A stretch of 13,435 nt of DNA, taken from the NCBI GenBank assembly GCA_039795795.1, contig JBDKKX010000088.1, positions 1 to 13,435 on the forward strand. Direction: 5' to 3'. The notes beneath the pieces are model-generated. The model ran no database searches. It was not told where the DNA came from and saw nothing but the letters and a program-made list of their open reading frames with translations. Position numbers and translations under genes: made by a program. The DNA is from Bacteroidota bacterium (GTDB lineage Bacteria > Bacteroidota > Bacteroidia > Chitinophagales > Saprospiraceae). Positions 5,714 through 13,435 of the stretch are shown here, piece by piece; positions within the stretch are counted from its first letter, which is position 1, and every line of letters begins with the position of its first letter.

Positions 5714-5755
5714 AAACTTTTTTTTATTATTTTTAATTTAAGTTTGTGGTGCGCT

Positions 5756-6051
5756 GGAATTAGGATTAAATGGGATTTTTGGGGGATTAAATGGGATTGA
5801 TTTTTAGGATTTGTAAGATTATAACCCTAAAAGTTTTATAAATTTTAAAAATCAATAGGATTTATAAGGTTATAACCCTAAAAATTTTATAAATTCTAAA
5901 AATCAATAGGATTTATAAGGTTATAACCCTAAAAATTTTATAAATTTTAAAAATCAATAGGATTTATAAGGCTATAACCCTAAAAATCTTATAAATCCTA
6001 AAAAAATCAATCCTATTTAATCCCAAAAAAATCCCATTTAATCCTAATTCC
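5756..6051. repeat. Composite intergenic repeat element: ~44-bp imperfect inverted-repeat arms (5756-5799 and 6008-6051) flanking a 51-bp tandem repeat array.
   Basis: The left arm ggaattaggattaaatgggatttttgggggattaaatgggattg matches the reverse complement of the right arm at 41 of 44 positions. Each arm holds five GGATT (or AATCC) motifs spaced 10-15 bp. Confidence 0.85.
5805..6008. repeat. Tandem repeat, 51-bp unit in about 3.6 copies.
   Basis: Unit taggatttataaggttataaccctaaaaattttataaattttaaaaatcaa starts at 5805, 5856, 5907 and 5958; the first and last copies are degenerate. Each unit contains the 10-bp palindrome GGTTATAACC and three TTATAA hexamers. Confidence 0.85.
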
Positions 6052-6062
6052 AACCGCCCGCG

Positions 6063-9387: not shown

Positions 9388-10263
9388 ATGAAACTAAAAC
9401 CAGCTCAACTTGTCGGTTTGCCTTTTGCGATTGCCGCGTTTGTCGGTTTTTATTTGGCTTACACCAAAAGTAGTGATTATGCCTTGTATGCTGCGTTGCC
9501 GCTGATTCTGCTGTCAGTTACATTTGTGATGAGTCCGCAGATTAATTGGTGGTGGTACAAGCGAAATCCGCCTGATACATCGGCAGGTATCACGCGTTTT
9601 TTGGAAAATGTGCCGTATTATCGCCTGTTGAACCCGGATTTGAAACCCAAATTTCGGCAACGAGTGGCTTTATATATGGAAGGAAATCAATTTATGCGCC
9701 CTGCACCGCCCCAAGAGGATAATCGGACGCGTTCCGATGTGCCCGAAGATTTAAAAGCGGCGGCAGCGGCATCTGCGGTTCAATTGACGTTTGGATTAAA
9801 AGATTTTATGTTGGATAAATTTGAAAATATTATCATCTATCCACAGGCATTTCCATCGCCACAATATCCAGATAGATTGCATTTATCAGAAGTTTATGAA
9901 GAAGATGGAGTCATTATTTTTTCAGCAGACGCGCTGATTCAAGGACTTACAAATCAAAATCTTTTTAATGTGGGTTTGTACGAATATGCCAAAGCGTATC
10001 AAATCCAATATTTGAAAGCGAAACCGATTCAATGGGAAGGGCAGATTTGGGAAAAATTAGCGGCAGTCGGCGGCATGAATGAAGCCGATTTTCAGCGATT
10101 TTTAAATTTGCCAGAGATTGATATTTTTGGGGTTGCAGTGCATCATTTTTTCAAATTACCTGTGGCATTTCAGAAGGTTTTACCTGAATTATTCCAATTA
10201 TTTGAAAAAATGTTTAAACAAAATCCTTTGAATGTAACCATGCCGATAGATTCAAACACATAG
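9388..10263 (+). CDS. Hypothetical membrane protein with two N-terminal TM helices and a cytoplasmic domain. Possibly distantly related to MtfA/peptidase M90, with a degenerate metal-binding motif.
   Basis: 291 aa with good coding periodicity. Hydrophobic helices at residues ~8-25 and ~32-50. The motif IIIYPQAFPSP resembles the MtfA LIYPAPF motif, but HExxH is replaced by YEYAK. The stop codon TAG at 10261-10263 lies inside the downstream palindromic repeat. Confidence 0.75.
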   Translation: MKLKPAQLVGLPFAIAAFVGFYLAYTKSSDYALYAALPLILLSVTFVMSPQINWWWYKRNPPDTSAGITRFLENVPYYRLLNPDLKPKFRQRVALYMEGNQFMRPAPPQEDNRTRSDVPEDLKAAAAASAVQLTFGLKDFMLDKFENIIIYPQAFPSPQYPDRLHLSEVYEEDGVIIFSADALIQGLTNQNLFNVGLYEYAKAYQIQYLKAKPIQWEGQIWEKLAAVGGMNEADFQRFLNLPEIDIFGVAVHHFFKLPVAFQKVLPELFQLFEKMFKQNPLNVTMPIDSNT

Positions 10264-10383
10264 GAGCATAGGAAACATAGATTTTGAACACATAGGAGCA
10301 TAGGAAACATAGGTTTGTACAAATCTATGTTTCCTATGCTCCTATGTGTTCAAAACCTATGTTGCCTATGTCCCTATGTGTTT
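10255..10383. repeat. Nested palindromic repeat (CATAGG element): four copies of a ~26-bp unit arranged as two direct followed by two inverted.
   Basis: Perfect 29-bp stem, 10284-10312 (ttgaacacataggagcataggaaacatag) paired with 10325-10353. The 12-nt loop gtttgtacaaat is itself palindromic. Outer imperfect copies at 10255-10281 and 10354-10381. Confidence 0.85.
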
Positions 10384-10423
10384 AAAAAAAAGCGCAACCA
10401 GTTGATTACCAACTGATTGCGCT
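10383..10423 (-). terminator. Intrinsic terminator for tRNA-Glu (minus strand).
   Basis: Hairpin agcgcaa-c-cagttg [attac] caactg-a-ttgcgct at 10391-10423, followed on the minus strand by U8 (plus-strand A-run 10383-10390). Confidence 0.6.
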
Positions 10424-10433
10424 GCATTTGTAG

Positions 10434-10505
10434 TAGCCCGTACGGGAGTCGAACCCGTCTTTTAAGAATGAAAATCTCATGTCCTAACCGATAGACGAAC
10501 GGGCC
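10434..10505 (-). tRNA. tRNA-Glu (anticodon UUC), 72 nt, CCA not encoded.
   Basis: Manual cloverleaf fold. Acceptor stem GGCCCGT/ACGGGCT with a G1-U wobble. D-arm GTCT-ATCGGTTA-GGAC. Anticodon stem TGAGA/TCTTA with loop TTTTCAT (U33, anticodon TTC, A37). T-arm ACGGG-TTCGACT-CCCGT. Discriminator A. Confidence 0.9.
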
Positions 10506-10606: not shown

Positions 10607-10679
10607 TTTTTTTTGAAAAAAAATGATTTTTTTTGAAATTATTTTTCTCAAAAAAAAGATTTCAAAAAAAATCATTTTT
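10607..10679. promoter_or_regulatory. A/T-tract palindrome upstream of the tRNA-Glu promoter region, possibly a curved-DNA/UP-like element.
   Basis: 20-bp perfect inverted repeat aaaaatgattttttttgaaa (10618-10637) and tttcaaaaaaaatcattttt (10660-10679). Direct repeats of ttttttttgaaa. A8/T8 tracts lie ~100-175 bp upstream of the tRNA 5' end. Confidence 0.35.
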
Positions 10680-11009: not shown

Positions 11010-12551
11010 ATGGATAAAAAATGGGACATCCTCCAACAAAAGCGTGACGAAGCCAAACTCGGCGGTGGTCAAAAACGCATTGATGCGCAACATAAAAAAG
11101 GTAAATTGACGGCTCGGGAACGGGTTCATTTCCTACTTGACCCGGATAGTTTTGAGGAAATTGGTCAATTGGTGACGCATCGCAGTTCTGATTTCGGTTT
11201 AGAAAACGAGATTTATTATGGGGACGGCGTTATTACAGGTTATGGAACGGTGAATGGTCGCTTAATTTATGTTTTTGCACAAGATTTTACTGTATTTGGC
11301 GGTTCGCTTTCGGAAACGCATGCAGAAAAAATTTGCAAAATTATGGATTTAGCGATTAAAAATGGCGCGCCTTGCGTTGGTTTGAACGATTCGGGGGGAG
11401 CGCGGATTCAAGAAGGGGTTAATTCATTGGGCGGTTATGCGGATATTTTCTATCGAAATGTTTTAAGTTCGGGCGTGATTCCACAGATTTCTGCGATTAT
11501 GGGACCCTGTGCGGGCGGCGCAGTGTATTCGCCTGCGATTACCGACTTTATTTTGATGGTGGAACATACGTCTTATATGTTTGTCACGGGACCGAATGTG
11601 GTTAAAACGGTGACGAACGAAGAAGTGACTTCGGAAGAACTCGGCGGCGCACATACACACGCGAGCAAATCGGGCGTGACGCACCTTACGGCAATCAATG
11701 ACATTGATTGTATTGAAAAAGTAAAAAAATTATTGAGTTACATTCCTCAAAACTGTGAAGATACGACTCCAAGAGTCCCTTACACGATGAGTGATGAATA
11801 TCGTCCCGATTTGTCTAAAATCGTCCCTGAAAATGCAAATCAACCGTATGATATGCGAGAAGTGATTGCAGGAATCGTTGATAATGAATCGTTTATGGAA
11901 ATTCATGAGCAATATGCTGAAAATATTGTCGTTGGATTTGCGCGATTGGCGGGACGTTCGATTGGAATTGTAGCGAACCAACCGATTAGTTTAGCGGGGG
12001 TTTTGGATGTAGAAAGTTCCAAAAAAGGCGCGCGATTTGTGCGTTTTTGCGATTGTTTTAATATTCCTTTATTGGTTTTGGTGGATGTTCCCGGGTTTTT
12101 GCCCGGTACAGACCAAGAATGGCATGGCATTATTACAAATGGTGCAAAATTATTATATGCTTTTAGCGAAGCGACCGTTCCGCGTGTGACGCTGATTACG
12201 CGCAAAGCGTATGGCGGCGCGTATGATGTGATGAATTCAAAACATATTGGGGCAGATATGAACTTTGCTTGGCCCACTGCGGAAATTGCGGTGATGGGTG
12301 CAAAAGGTGCGTCGGAGATTATTTTCAAACAAGAAATATCCAAATCGGCTGACCCTGCGGCAAAATTGGCTGAAAAAGAAGCGGAATATGCTCAAAAATT
12401 TGCCAATCCGTATCGGGCAGCGAGTCGCGGTTTCATTGATGAAGTGATTCACCCTTCGGAATCGCGTCGAAAATTAATAAAAACTTATGCTATGTTGGAA
12501 AATAAAGTAGCTAAATTGCCGAAAAAGAAACATGGCAATATTCCATTGTAA
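11010..12551 (+). CDS. Acyl-CoA carboxylase carboxyltransferase subunit (propionyl-CoA carboxylase beta chain / methylmalonyl-CoA decarboxylase alpha family).
   Basis: 513 aa. Two carboxyltransferase half-domains. Signature stretches [34 protein letters not shown] and [16 protein letters not shown]. Confidence 0.93.
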
Positions 12552-12571
12552 AGAAAATGGAATAAAACACA

Positions 12572-12674
12572 TTTTTGGAACACATAGGAACATCGAAGAC
12601 ATAGATTTTCTAAATCATTGATAATCAGTTATTTAGAAAATCTATGTCTTCGATGTTCCTATGTGTTCCAAAAA
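12572..12674. repeat. Perfect 44-bp inverted repeat with a 15-nt loop, CATAGG-family palindromic element.
   Basis: Left arm 12572-12615 tttttggaacacataggaacatcgaagacatagattttctaaat is exactly the reverse complement of 12631-12674. Shares the gaacacatagga and acatagatttt cores with the element at 10255-10383. Lies between two convergent stop codons. Confidence 0.85.
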
Positions 12675-12684
12675 TGAAACATCC

Positions 12685-13435
12685 CTACTCAACGTCATGT
12701 TCCAACACATCGCTCAAAATGGTGCCTTTCAATAGGCTTGAAAATACATCCGCAACGCTTTTGCCGCCCAAAATAGAAAGTGGAGACATTGAAACCGCTA
12801 CTTTTTCCGCCAAAGCCCGATTGCTAAACGATTGAAGTGCTGCAATCAAATTCGGCGAAACGGCGGCAGCTTTACTAACTGTCGCATCCACTTCGGCTTT
12901 CAACTCCAATAACCGTTGTTGCAAGTGCAATTCTGCCAACGCGATTTCGACTTCTCCTTTCGATTTCACGATAGATAATTCGGTTGCATTGATTTTTTCC
13001 AAATGAGATTGGGCATTTAATTCGGCTTCCAAACTTTCTGAACGCGATTTGGCATCTGCCTCAATCCGTGCTAACGAATTTTGCAAAGTCAACTCTATTT
13101 CTTTTTTCGCCAGCGACAATGCTAAACTTTGCGTATCCGCCTTGCTTTGCATGACGCTTCGATTGATAGATTCCGTTTCAGTGGTCAATAACAAGCGTCG
13201 TTTTTCCGCACGGATGCCTAAATTTTGCGTAATCACATCTTGTTGCGCTTGAATCAACATTTTTTCAATATGAGCATCTCCTAATTTGATGTCAAAAATC
13301 TCTACGTCATAAATCCGCATATTATTCTCGGAAAACAACTTTCCAGGACGTTTATTTTGCTCATTTGGCAAACCCAAAACCGTATCTCGAATAATATTAA
13401 TCCCATTCGCGTAAAAATCCATAATATTATACCGC
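12685..13435 (-). CDS. Flotillin/SPFH-domain-like protein, C-terminal part (the gene continues beyond the window end).
   Basis: The ORF is open to the window edge. Long A/E/L/K-rich coiled-coil segment (…ELKAEVDATVSKAAA…, …EADAKSRSESLEAELNAQ…) after a band-7-like segment (IYDVEIFDIKLGD). Stop TAG at 12685-12687. Confidence 0.65.
   Translation of the reverse strand, partial: RYNIMDFYANGINIIRDTVLGLPNEQNKRPGKLFSENNMRIYDVEIFDIKLGDAHIEKMLIQAQQDVITQNLGIRAEKRRLLLTTETESINRSVMQSKADTQSLALSLAKKEIELTLQNSLARIEADAKSRSESLEAELNAQSHLEKINATELSIVKSKGEVEIALAELHLQQRLLELKAEVDATVSKAAAVSPNLIAALQSFSNRALAEKVAVSMSPLSILGGKSVADVFSSLLKGTILSDVLEHDVE

Follow-up and report, generated by a model that had tools for sequence, protein, structure and literature searches.

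Iterated-box hairpins in a Saprospiraceae contig and the GxxExxY nuclease-type genes found beside related repeats

The hallmark of repetitive extragenic palindromic (REP) sequences is a conserved GTAG or CGTC tetranucleotide heading a palindrome of 20-40 nt (PMC3733652). REPs, their inverted doublets (REPINs) and the REP-associated tyrosine transposases (RAYTs) serve here as the first point of comparison for two long hairpins, elements 1 and 2, in a 13,435-nt stretch of a Saprospiraceae genome (contig JBDKKX010000088.1; this whole stretch is referred to below as the window). Both elements belong to a widespread family of hairpins with arms of iterated CATAG boxes, and this family is linked to genes for GxxExxY proteins, which carry the signature of PD-(D/E)XK nucleases. 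On balance, these gene-less members of the family are probably REPIN-like partners of GxxExxY nuclease genes that would be mobilised in trans, and this is held with modest confidence.

As in the REP and REPIN-RAYT systems, the box hairpins are short intergenic palindromes with copies at many loci, often arranged as inverted doublets; one small nuclease-type gene is flanked by the repeats in inverted orientation, no target-site duplication is seen, and the repeat sequence co-varies with the protein lineage. In contrast to a REP, which is one imperfect palindrome of 20-40 nt, the arms of the box hairpins are arrays of three to four iterated boxes of 8-10 nt. They begin with AACACATAGG and have CATAG as their repeated core, and the GTAG or CGTC head is absent. 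The partner differs as well: RAYTs are Y1 (HUH) transposases and typically single-copy, whereas the GxxExxY gene encodes a predicted PD-(D/E)XK nuclease (PF13366), is multi-copy and is located inside operons. Across 188 loci selected by motif (1.236 Mb), PF13366 was the only enriched partner and no Y1 (HUH) transposase was encountered in that role.

The box hairpins also resemble miniature inverted-repeat transposable elements (MITEs) in being short and gene-less, in having terminal inverted repeats, and in having rarer gene-bearing relatives with the same ends. Unlike those of MITEs, these relatives encode only the PD-(D/E)XK nuclease; a recognised transposase of the DDE, serine or tyrosine type is absent. 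Among 83 hairpins, direct repeats of 3-8 nt at both ends were no commoner than in shuffled sequence; the flanks are complementary instead, as they are in the window (TTGA...TCAA and TGGA...TCCA). A 2-nt duplication of TA could still be present, because TA is itself palindromic. An earlier reading of the window, made from the sequence only, had suggested a REP-like element or the footprint of a small palindromic mobile element. That direction was right, while membership in either class was rejected: for REPs because the GTAG/CGTC tag and a RAYT are absent, and for MITEs because a target-site duplication of 3 nt or more and a transposase-encoding parent are absent.

The box-hairpin family and its GxxExxY genes

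Arms of the family contain at least three (CA)CATAG(G) boxes, 8-10 nt apart, and start with AACACATAGG; each is followed, over a short loop, by the inverted arm, with T-rich and A-rich flanks that prolong the palindrome. Both window elements have this architecture, and all six of their arms fit AACACATAGGNNCATNGNNNACATAG, the pattern that matched at least 120 metagenome loci. A species-representative genome collection was scanned with the pattern of a sister variant spaced 8/10, in which the third box lies one base further than in the window's own 8/9 variant, so that the resulting 68 loci, against about one expected for 20 specified bases, count the sister variant and not the window's. Nearly all of the 68 are in Bacteroidota (Chitinophagaceae, Saprospiraceae, Crocinitomicaceae, Luteibaculum, Sphingobacteriales, Cytophagales and Bacteroidales), with a few in Ignavibacteria and Acidobacteriota, and the window-type DNA pattern had no match in viral contigs. 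Since the window has two members and the motif recurs at 68 loci in genomes and at least 120 in metagenomes, element 1 belongs to a repeat family and is not the local oddity that the sequence-only reading had allowed for.

A typical member of the family reads tttTA-AACACATAGGcACATAGnnCACATAG-loop-CTATGTGnnCTATGTGCCTATGTGTT-TAAa; the loops have a median length of 19 nt, and the flank consensus is tttTA/AACAC...GTGTT/TAAa, the palindrome reaching 4-6 nt past AACAC. This anatomy, with three to four iterated boxes per arm, is consistent across genome and metagenome loci. At the spacer positions, the two arms of one element pair better than re-paired arms (41 of 66 positions Watson-Crick, compared with a shuffle mean of 30 and maximum of 39). 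Even so, no more than about 60% of these positions are paired, while conservation of the boxes extends across phyla; recognition of the sequence thus seems at least as important as formation of the hairpin. A palindromic motif, TTGA-N1-3-TCAA (often TTGATAATCAA), is present in 10 of 77 distinct hairpin loops (L081, L093, L118, L125, L143, L144, L145, L158, L162 and L173), and a near-form, TTGATAATCAG, occurs in window element 2 (12609-12637). This recurrent loop palindrome could be a second recognition or cleavage site.

Within the 1.236 Mb of motif-selected loci, 202 of 210 elements (96%) are intergenic. By orientation, 38 flanking gene pairs are convergent, 61 tandem and 10 divergent, and the excess of convergent and tandem over divergent pairs indicates that the elements favour the 3' ends of genes. 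Contact or overlap with a stop codon is seen in only about 7% of them, and the distances from stop codon to arm are broad. The idea that family members typically provide the stop codon of the upstream gene was rejected on these grounds.

Clustering of all open reading frames (ORFs) within 300 nt of the arms at the 188 loci identified GxxExxY as the sole enriched protein family (15 loci); neither a RAYT nor any other transposase was enriched in this clustering, in which ORFs were not individually scanned against Pfam. The partner protein is about 136 aa long and matches TIGR04256 at E = 1e-34 to 1e-41, as well as PF13366 (PDDEXK_3). When each ORF of the 188 loci and of the window was searched with the profile, 16 GxxExxY genes were found. 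None is more than 656 nt from an arm and 14 are within 150 nt of one, a range in which 11.9% of positions would be expected; the binomial estimate for this proximity is about 1e-11, and is in reality somewhat weaker, as the loci include relatives. Arms with the 8/9 spacing of the window adjoin five of these genes (L080, L101, L134, L179 and L187).

Full-length units of about 0.5 kb, consisting of an arm, 0-60 nt, the ORF with its stop codon, 0-35 nt and an inverted arm, were found at five loci (L021, L022, L027, L028 and L041). At L022 the unit spans about 490 bp, with no gap between one arm and the ATG or between the stop codon and the other arm. In a second form (L204, L080), the gene has a complete hairpin and a ribosome-binding site on either side. 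Among the motif-selected loci, gene-less copies are more than ten times as numerous as gene-bearing ones.

In alignments of both close and distant GxxExxY homologues, E30, D70, E80 and K82 (P0121 numbering) are invariant, and by sequence this E...D...ExK pattern reads as the intact site of an active-type PD-(D/E)XK nuclease. No sequence-related solved structure was found for GxxExxY. An AlphaFold model of moderate quality (predicted local distance difference test, pLDDT, 72.7) has as its best match the Cas4 protein SSO0001 (probability 0.99; template modelling score, TM, about 0.43), followed by Cas4-family proteins and by restriction and homing endonucleases, including I-Bth0305I. Searches of PADLOC and PHROGs gave weak Cas4-like or homing-endonuclease-like matches only, and the gene is therefore not called a defence gene; the protein profile had no match in viral contigs. 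The family is large, with 23,176 clusters at 50% identity (E <= 0.001). Some representatives (P0364-P0366, P0369, P0371 and others) are 270-295 aa long and carry two GxxExxY domains in tandem, and these fusions suggest a dimeric working unit. In a survey of the PD-(D/E)XK superfamily, PF13366 was entered as 'unknown' (PMC3424549). A literature search covering sources other than subscription journals, in which an earlier report may exist, returned no account of the repeat or of an association with GxxExxY, and none of the publications it found that name GxxExxY concerned repeats.

The association also holds in the reverse direction. Ten independent loci were selected by the protein alone, by tblastn on plasmids and by exact look-ups of database homologues, and eight of them have inverted arms of about three iterated boxes, with a box sequence that varies with lineage:

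Box CACAGAGG: Bacteroides (L198/L212) and Bernardetia (L199)
Box CGCAGAGG: Gemmatirosa (L200)
Box CGCGAAGG: Sphingomonas (L201)
Box CATAG: Flavobacterium sp. TMP13 (L217), a Logan metagenome contig (L204) and Pyrinomonadaceae (L218)
Box ATAAG: Pedobacter (L223)

The two deviating loci are those of Treponema (L202), with an 11-nt inverted repeat only, and Prevotella (L203), with direct box arrays. The GxxExxY gene sits between housekeeping genes (fabD/fabG, FtsX/ABC ATPase, FecCD/ABC ATPase, radA/FAD protein, ade/manC and M1 peptidase/DapB). The gaps range from tens of nt to a few hundred and are 30-60 nt at their tightest. Such placement resembles that typical of a selfish insertion.

Several further observations were made at these protein-selected loci. 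In Sphingomonas (L201, 1560-1620), the annotated GxxExxY ORF runs through the right arm and the ribosome-binding site of fabG; the C-terminal tail (…IASSRLRVNQRIGG) is probably artefactual, a product of annotating through the repeat. Gemmatirosa (L200, 1150-1600) has a frameshifted GxxExxY pseudogene with intact CGCAGAGG-box hairpins, at one of three such places in the record. Identical GxxExxY sequences on many contigs (P0135, P0321) were considered as a sign of recent movement and rejected, each having one conserved context; a second 136-aa ORF in L218 was likewise rejected as a GxxExxY gene, being an esterase fragment. In Flavobacterium sp. TMP13 (L217, 7253-7615), a gene of the 23S_rRNA_IVP family (PF05635, a four-helix bundle) lies in the same cobalamin/ABC-transporter cluster, about 2.4 kb from the GxxExxY gene; no repeats stood out when its flanks were read, without a repeat search there. 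ORF-bearing 23S rRNA intervening sequences (IVS) of that family resemble the gene-bearing box elements in having a small ORF in the loop of a long terminal-repeat hairpin within conserved DNA, and both protein families are multi-copy in Bacteroidota. The two differ in protein fold and family, and the IVS elements lie inside rRNA genes and are excised by RNase III.

In the mechanism proposed for the family, the nuclease, probably acting as a dimer or oligomer, would recognise the iterated boxes in DNA that is duplex or extruded as a hairpin. Hairpins with and without the gene would be copied by its action into intergenic sites, chiefly at the 3' ends of genes, and the gene-less hairpins would stand to GxxExxY as REPINs stand to RAYTs, with another class of enzyme. 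We infer that the nuclease may bind or cut the boxes and that gene-less copies may be mobilised in trans.

A number of points weigh against this REPIN-like interpretation. Among the loci compared, no transposition or homing event was seen, nor any clean filled/empty pair with exact boundaries, and the gene-bearing element of Bacteroides keeps the same context across species, being stable rather than visibly mobile. The window itself has no GxxExxY ORF (hmmsearch over its 13.4 kb). Single metagenome-assembled genomes gave 3-6 exact matches to the sister-variant pattern, figures that fall short of full per-genome counts. The 16 motif-selected genes are not all independent, some loci being close relatives, the protein-selected sample is small (10 loci), and the structural model is moderate (pLDDT 72.7; best TM about 0.43). 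Finally, to our knowledge, PD-(D/E)XK enzymes are not established as stand-alone transposases.

The position of the gene also bears on a different origin, which is considered unlikely. Hairpins could have come first, as self-propagating or host repeats, with the GxxExxY gene cutting the centre of an empty hairpin and being copied into the loop by repair, the arms serving as homology; the window elements would then be unoccupied targets. The gene is always at the loop position between the arms, conserved cassette ends apart from the arms are absent, and the absence of a target-site duplication is as expected of repair-based copying. Furthermore, the protein has weak profile and fold similarity to homing endonucleases, I-Bth0305I among them, and the TTGA-N1-3-TCAA palindrome of 10 of the 77 loops, with its near-form in element 2, could be a cleavage site. 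However, homing leaves unexplained how gene-less hairpins spread over many loci and phyla with the matching protein lineage. The co-variation of arms and protein (CATAG, CACAGAG, CGCAGAG, ATAAG) fits a single co-evolving unit, and at L204 and L080 the gene is flanked by two complete hairpins, not enclosed in one. Known free-standing PD-(D/E)XK or Vsr-like homing endonuclease genes (for instance I-Ssp6803I and I-Bth0305I) are likewise small nuclease genes between conserved host genes, but are without iterated-box inverted arms or a large population of gene-less hairpins.

The two elements of the window

The features of the window that concern elements 1 and 2 are as follows:

10251-10386, no strand assigned: element 1, the entire composite palindrome, in which two forward arms precede two inverted ones; centre at 10318/10319
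10255-10284, plus strand: unit a, forward arm; CATAG(G) boxes start at 10259, 10267 and 10276, and have counterparts in units b, c and d; holds the TAG stop codon of the upstream ORF
10261-10263, plus strand: TAG stop codon of ORF 9388-10263 (Peptidase_M90-like), inside the first CATAGG box
10287-10316, plus strand: unit b, forward arm; tandem copy of unit a with a 32-nt period, 97% identical
10321-10350, minus strand: unit c, inverted arm (10321-10352 in the comparison with unit d); partner of unit b in the fold and exact reverse complement of unit a
10353-10384, minus strand: unit d, inverted arm; most diverged copy, 84% identical to unit c
10383-10423, minus strand: intrinsic terminator of tRNA-Glu, with hairpin 10423-10391 and a T8 run at 10390-10383; adjoins element 1 and is not part of it
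10433-10505, minus strand: tRNA-Glu gene
12570-12676, no strand assigned: element 2, the second member of the family; one hairpin whose arms read CACATAGGAACATCGAAGACATAG and whose palindromic loop contains TTGATAATCA, between convergent genes 11010-12551 (plus strand) and 12685-13422 (minus strand)

A repeat search of the window delimited element 1 as two directly adjoining halves of 68 nt (10251-10318 and 10319-10386) that are 91% complementary. Its repeat unit of about 32 nt occurs in two direct and then two inverted copies, spaced 2-4 nt apart, as the sequence-only reading had described. The sequence CATAGGARCATAGG, with up to three mismatches, occurs six times in the window against 0.94 expected, a count reached in none of 200 shuffles. 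As RNA, element 1 is predicted to fold into an interrupted hairpin of 60 pairs (11+7+7+35), at -91.7 kcal/mol on the plus strand (z = -18.9) and -93.9 kcal/mol on the minus strand (z = -19.1); no shuffle among 200 gave a fold as stable. This agrees with the hairpin of about 60 paired bases proposed earlier. The 'perfect 29-bp stem' at its core was roughly right, the inner stem having about 31 perfect pairs (10282-10312 with 10325-10355), followed by one G-T position and then the centre TTTGTACAAA.

The palindrome had also been described as nested. Palindrome and four copies are real, but the arms do not look cleanly nested: unit a is 100% complementary to unit c and not to its nested partner d, which is the diverged copy. 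The exact match of unit a to unit c, with unit d the outlier, makes the arms look tandemly duplicated, and an origin of the four-arm form by clean insertion of one hairpin inside another was rejected. The window's four-arm form would accordingly have arisen as arms were duplicated in tandem, a common occurrence in the family. Single arms form tandem arrays elsewhere, which shows the doubled arms of the window to be in character for the family. In L027 (6208-6700), nine 57-nt units follow straight after a full-length GxxExxY element, and further arrays with periods of 76-126 nt occur in L054, L007, L060, L068 and L020; L190 also has one. A clustered regularly interspaced short palindromic repeat (CRISPR) array was considered and rejected, as the window has two direct and two inverted copies only 2-4 nt apart, and the sequence between arms in the L027 array is itself repeated rather than unique.

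The stop codon of ORF 9388-10263 lies within the first unit of element 1, as had been noted. Since the palindrome starts at 10251, the last three to four codons of this ORF are also within the element, and insertion of element 1 would have given the gene its last codons as well as its stop codon. With only about 7% of family members abutting or overlapping a stop codon, the overlap in the window is regarded as incidental. The membrane protein that this gene had been taken to encode is not evident; the ORF has a Pfam match to Peptidase_M90 instead (E = 1.9e-11). Exact-protein look-ups of this ORF and of GAPDH found no record.

Element 2 was confirmed at 12570-12676, close to the 12572-12674 given in the sequence-only reading. 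It has 53-nt arms that are 96% complementary, and its predicted fold has an energy of -76.7 kcal/mol (z = -19.7). Both window elements are located between convergent genes.

Like intrinsic terminators, the box hairpins form stem-loops at the 3' ends of genes, in many cases between convergent pairs. They differ in having a very long AT-rich stem and no U-tract, and in being conserved across phyla in sequence as well as in shape. Element 1 is followed by an A-run on the plus strand and by GAATC on the minus strand, and no U-tract follows on either, in line with the earlier view that it is no canonical terminator. In a terminator scan, only the neighbouring tRNA-Glu terminator is canonical; its T8 run reads as A8 on the plus strand at 10383-10390 and abuts element 1, so the adjacency noted earlier holds, and the matches inside element 1 use T-rich box sequence as a 'tail'. 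Without a U-tract, membership among intrinsic terminators, which have a GC-rich stem of 5-20 pairs and a U-tract, was rejected. Rfam returned generic matches to miRNA-precursor-like hairpins only, all far below the gathering threshold (best 60.9 bits, compared with 101). In its present place, element 1 is probably a passive 3' hairpin on the mRNA of the Peptidase_M90-like gene.

Two other palindromic features of the window are separate from the CATAG elements. At 5754-6052 there is a different box-type repeat, a 51-nt inverted repeat of GGGATT boxes (5755-5805 and 6002-6052, 94% complementary) that encloses four tandem 51-nt units, each with the palindrome GGTTATAACC. It sits inside an efflux operon on the minus strand, between the stop codon of the HlyD-family gene and the start of the AcrB gene. 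An A/T-rich palindrome at 10619-10679, with 28-nt arms that are 93% complementary, lies upstream of the tRNA-Glu gene (minus strand) and coincides in part with promoter-like matches.

Turnover after the carboxyltransferase stop codon

The position directly past the carboxyltransferase stop codon, which is the site of element 2 in the window, was compared between the window and its relatives (identities are those of the carboxyltransferase to that of the window):

Window: CATAG/CATCGA hairpin after the stop codon
L069, 100% identical: a different, GGATG-box hairpin and a 13-nt CATAG-arm remnant
L190 and L191, 97% identical: four-box CATAG hairpin with extra tandem arm pieces; different downstream gene
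L192 and L193, 86% identical: no hairpin
L194-L196, 86% identical: other long palindromes beside a Uma2 nuclease gene

Different elements, or none, at one site identify it as a hot spot with rapid replacement. In L190 and L191 the downstream gene differs from that of the window, and the repeat therefore marks a break in synteny. This turnover is indirect evidence, drawn from sequence comparison, of possible mobility or recombination at the repeats.

The individual sites have features of their own. The hairpin of L069 (2409-2530) has arms of GGATG/CGATT boxes with a 9-nt period, alongside the CATAG-arm remnant ATGTGTTCCAAAA, and may represent a sister family with its own partner protein. In L190 (1636-1806) and L191 (2317-2487), the four-box CATAG hairpin keeps a strict 9-nt period, directly follows the TAG stop codon, and is extended by tandem partial inverted arms. 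In L192 (7599-8186), L193, L194 (6362-6976), L195 and L196, the neighbour of the carboxyltransferase gene encodes a Uma2-family (PF05685) putative endonuclease, a small multi-copy PD-(D/E)XK protein; the palindromes of L194-L196 are unrelated, with arms of about 85 nt.

These comparisons bear on the proposal that the hairpins are RNA elements selected by the host, as 3'-untranslated-region stem-loops that block 3' exonucleases or aid termination between convergent genes, a role that has been proposed for REPs; the link to GxxExxY would then be secondary, the gene using the hairpins as insulators. The 38 convergent compared with 10 divergent placements, the convergent position of both window copies, the very stable predicted RNA structures and the pairing of variable positions (41 of 66, shuffle mean 30) are all consistent with this. 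However, the site past the carboxyltransferase gene carries another element or none in close relatives, so that no single sequence is required there, and the order of T-rich flank, hairpin and A-rich flank provides no U-tract on either strand. A purely structural element would also be expected to drift, whereas box sequence is conserved across phyla while spacer pairing is about 60%, and the tandem single-arm arrays of L027 and L190 have no obvious RNA role. A host RNA element is thus judged distinctly improbable.

The arm remnant of L069 touches on another proposal, in which gene-less hairpins are not self-propagating but are decayed full-length GxxExxY elements from which the gene has been deleted. 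The frameshifted pseudogene of Gemmatirosa (L200) shows that the gene can decay inside intact arms, and the 13-nt piece retained by L069 is likewise what such a footprint could leave. This origin is given the least credence of the alternatives: gene-less copies exceed gene-bearing ones by more than 10:1 in the motif-selected loci, and their short loops (median 19 nt), some sharing a palindromic motif, have a uniformity that would not be expected from independent deletions. No gene remnants were noticed in the loops that were read, which were not formally searched. The interpretation of the window elements as REPIN-like partners of GxxExxY genes remains the preferred one.

Implications for the GxxExxY family

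What sets this pairing of a palindromic repeat population with a nuclease gene apart from known ones is the different enzyme fold and the distinctive arms of iterated boxes. The broader claim, which is tentative and for which we would not yet claim an even chance, is that GxxExxY proteins are the enzymes of unrecognised minimal mobile elements of about 0.5 kb, with lineage-matched boxes, that spawn gene-less box hairpins. This would be a second, independent invention of the REPIN-RAYT kind with another catalytic fold.

The box repeats have a practical consequence for annotation, in that they can falsely end ORFs, as in the window, or lengthen them, as in the Sphingomonas tail, and they may confuse annotation and assembly. 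For the large GxxExxY/PDDEXK_3 family, the association provides a testable role, namely the binding or cutting of its own box arms. If the broader claim is true, it would explain small genes wedged in operons such as fabD/fabG and ABC-transporter operons, widespread intergenic palindromes in Bacteroidota and some other phyla, and the rapid turnover and synteny breaks at gene 3' ends. Ultimately, if the REPIN-like reading is true, the combination of a domesticated nuclease and a hairpin population would have arisen more than once.

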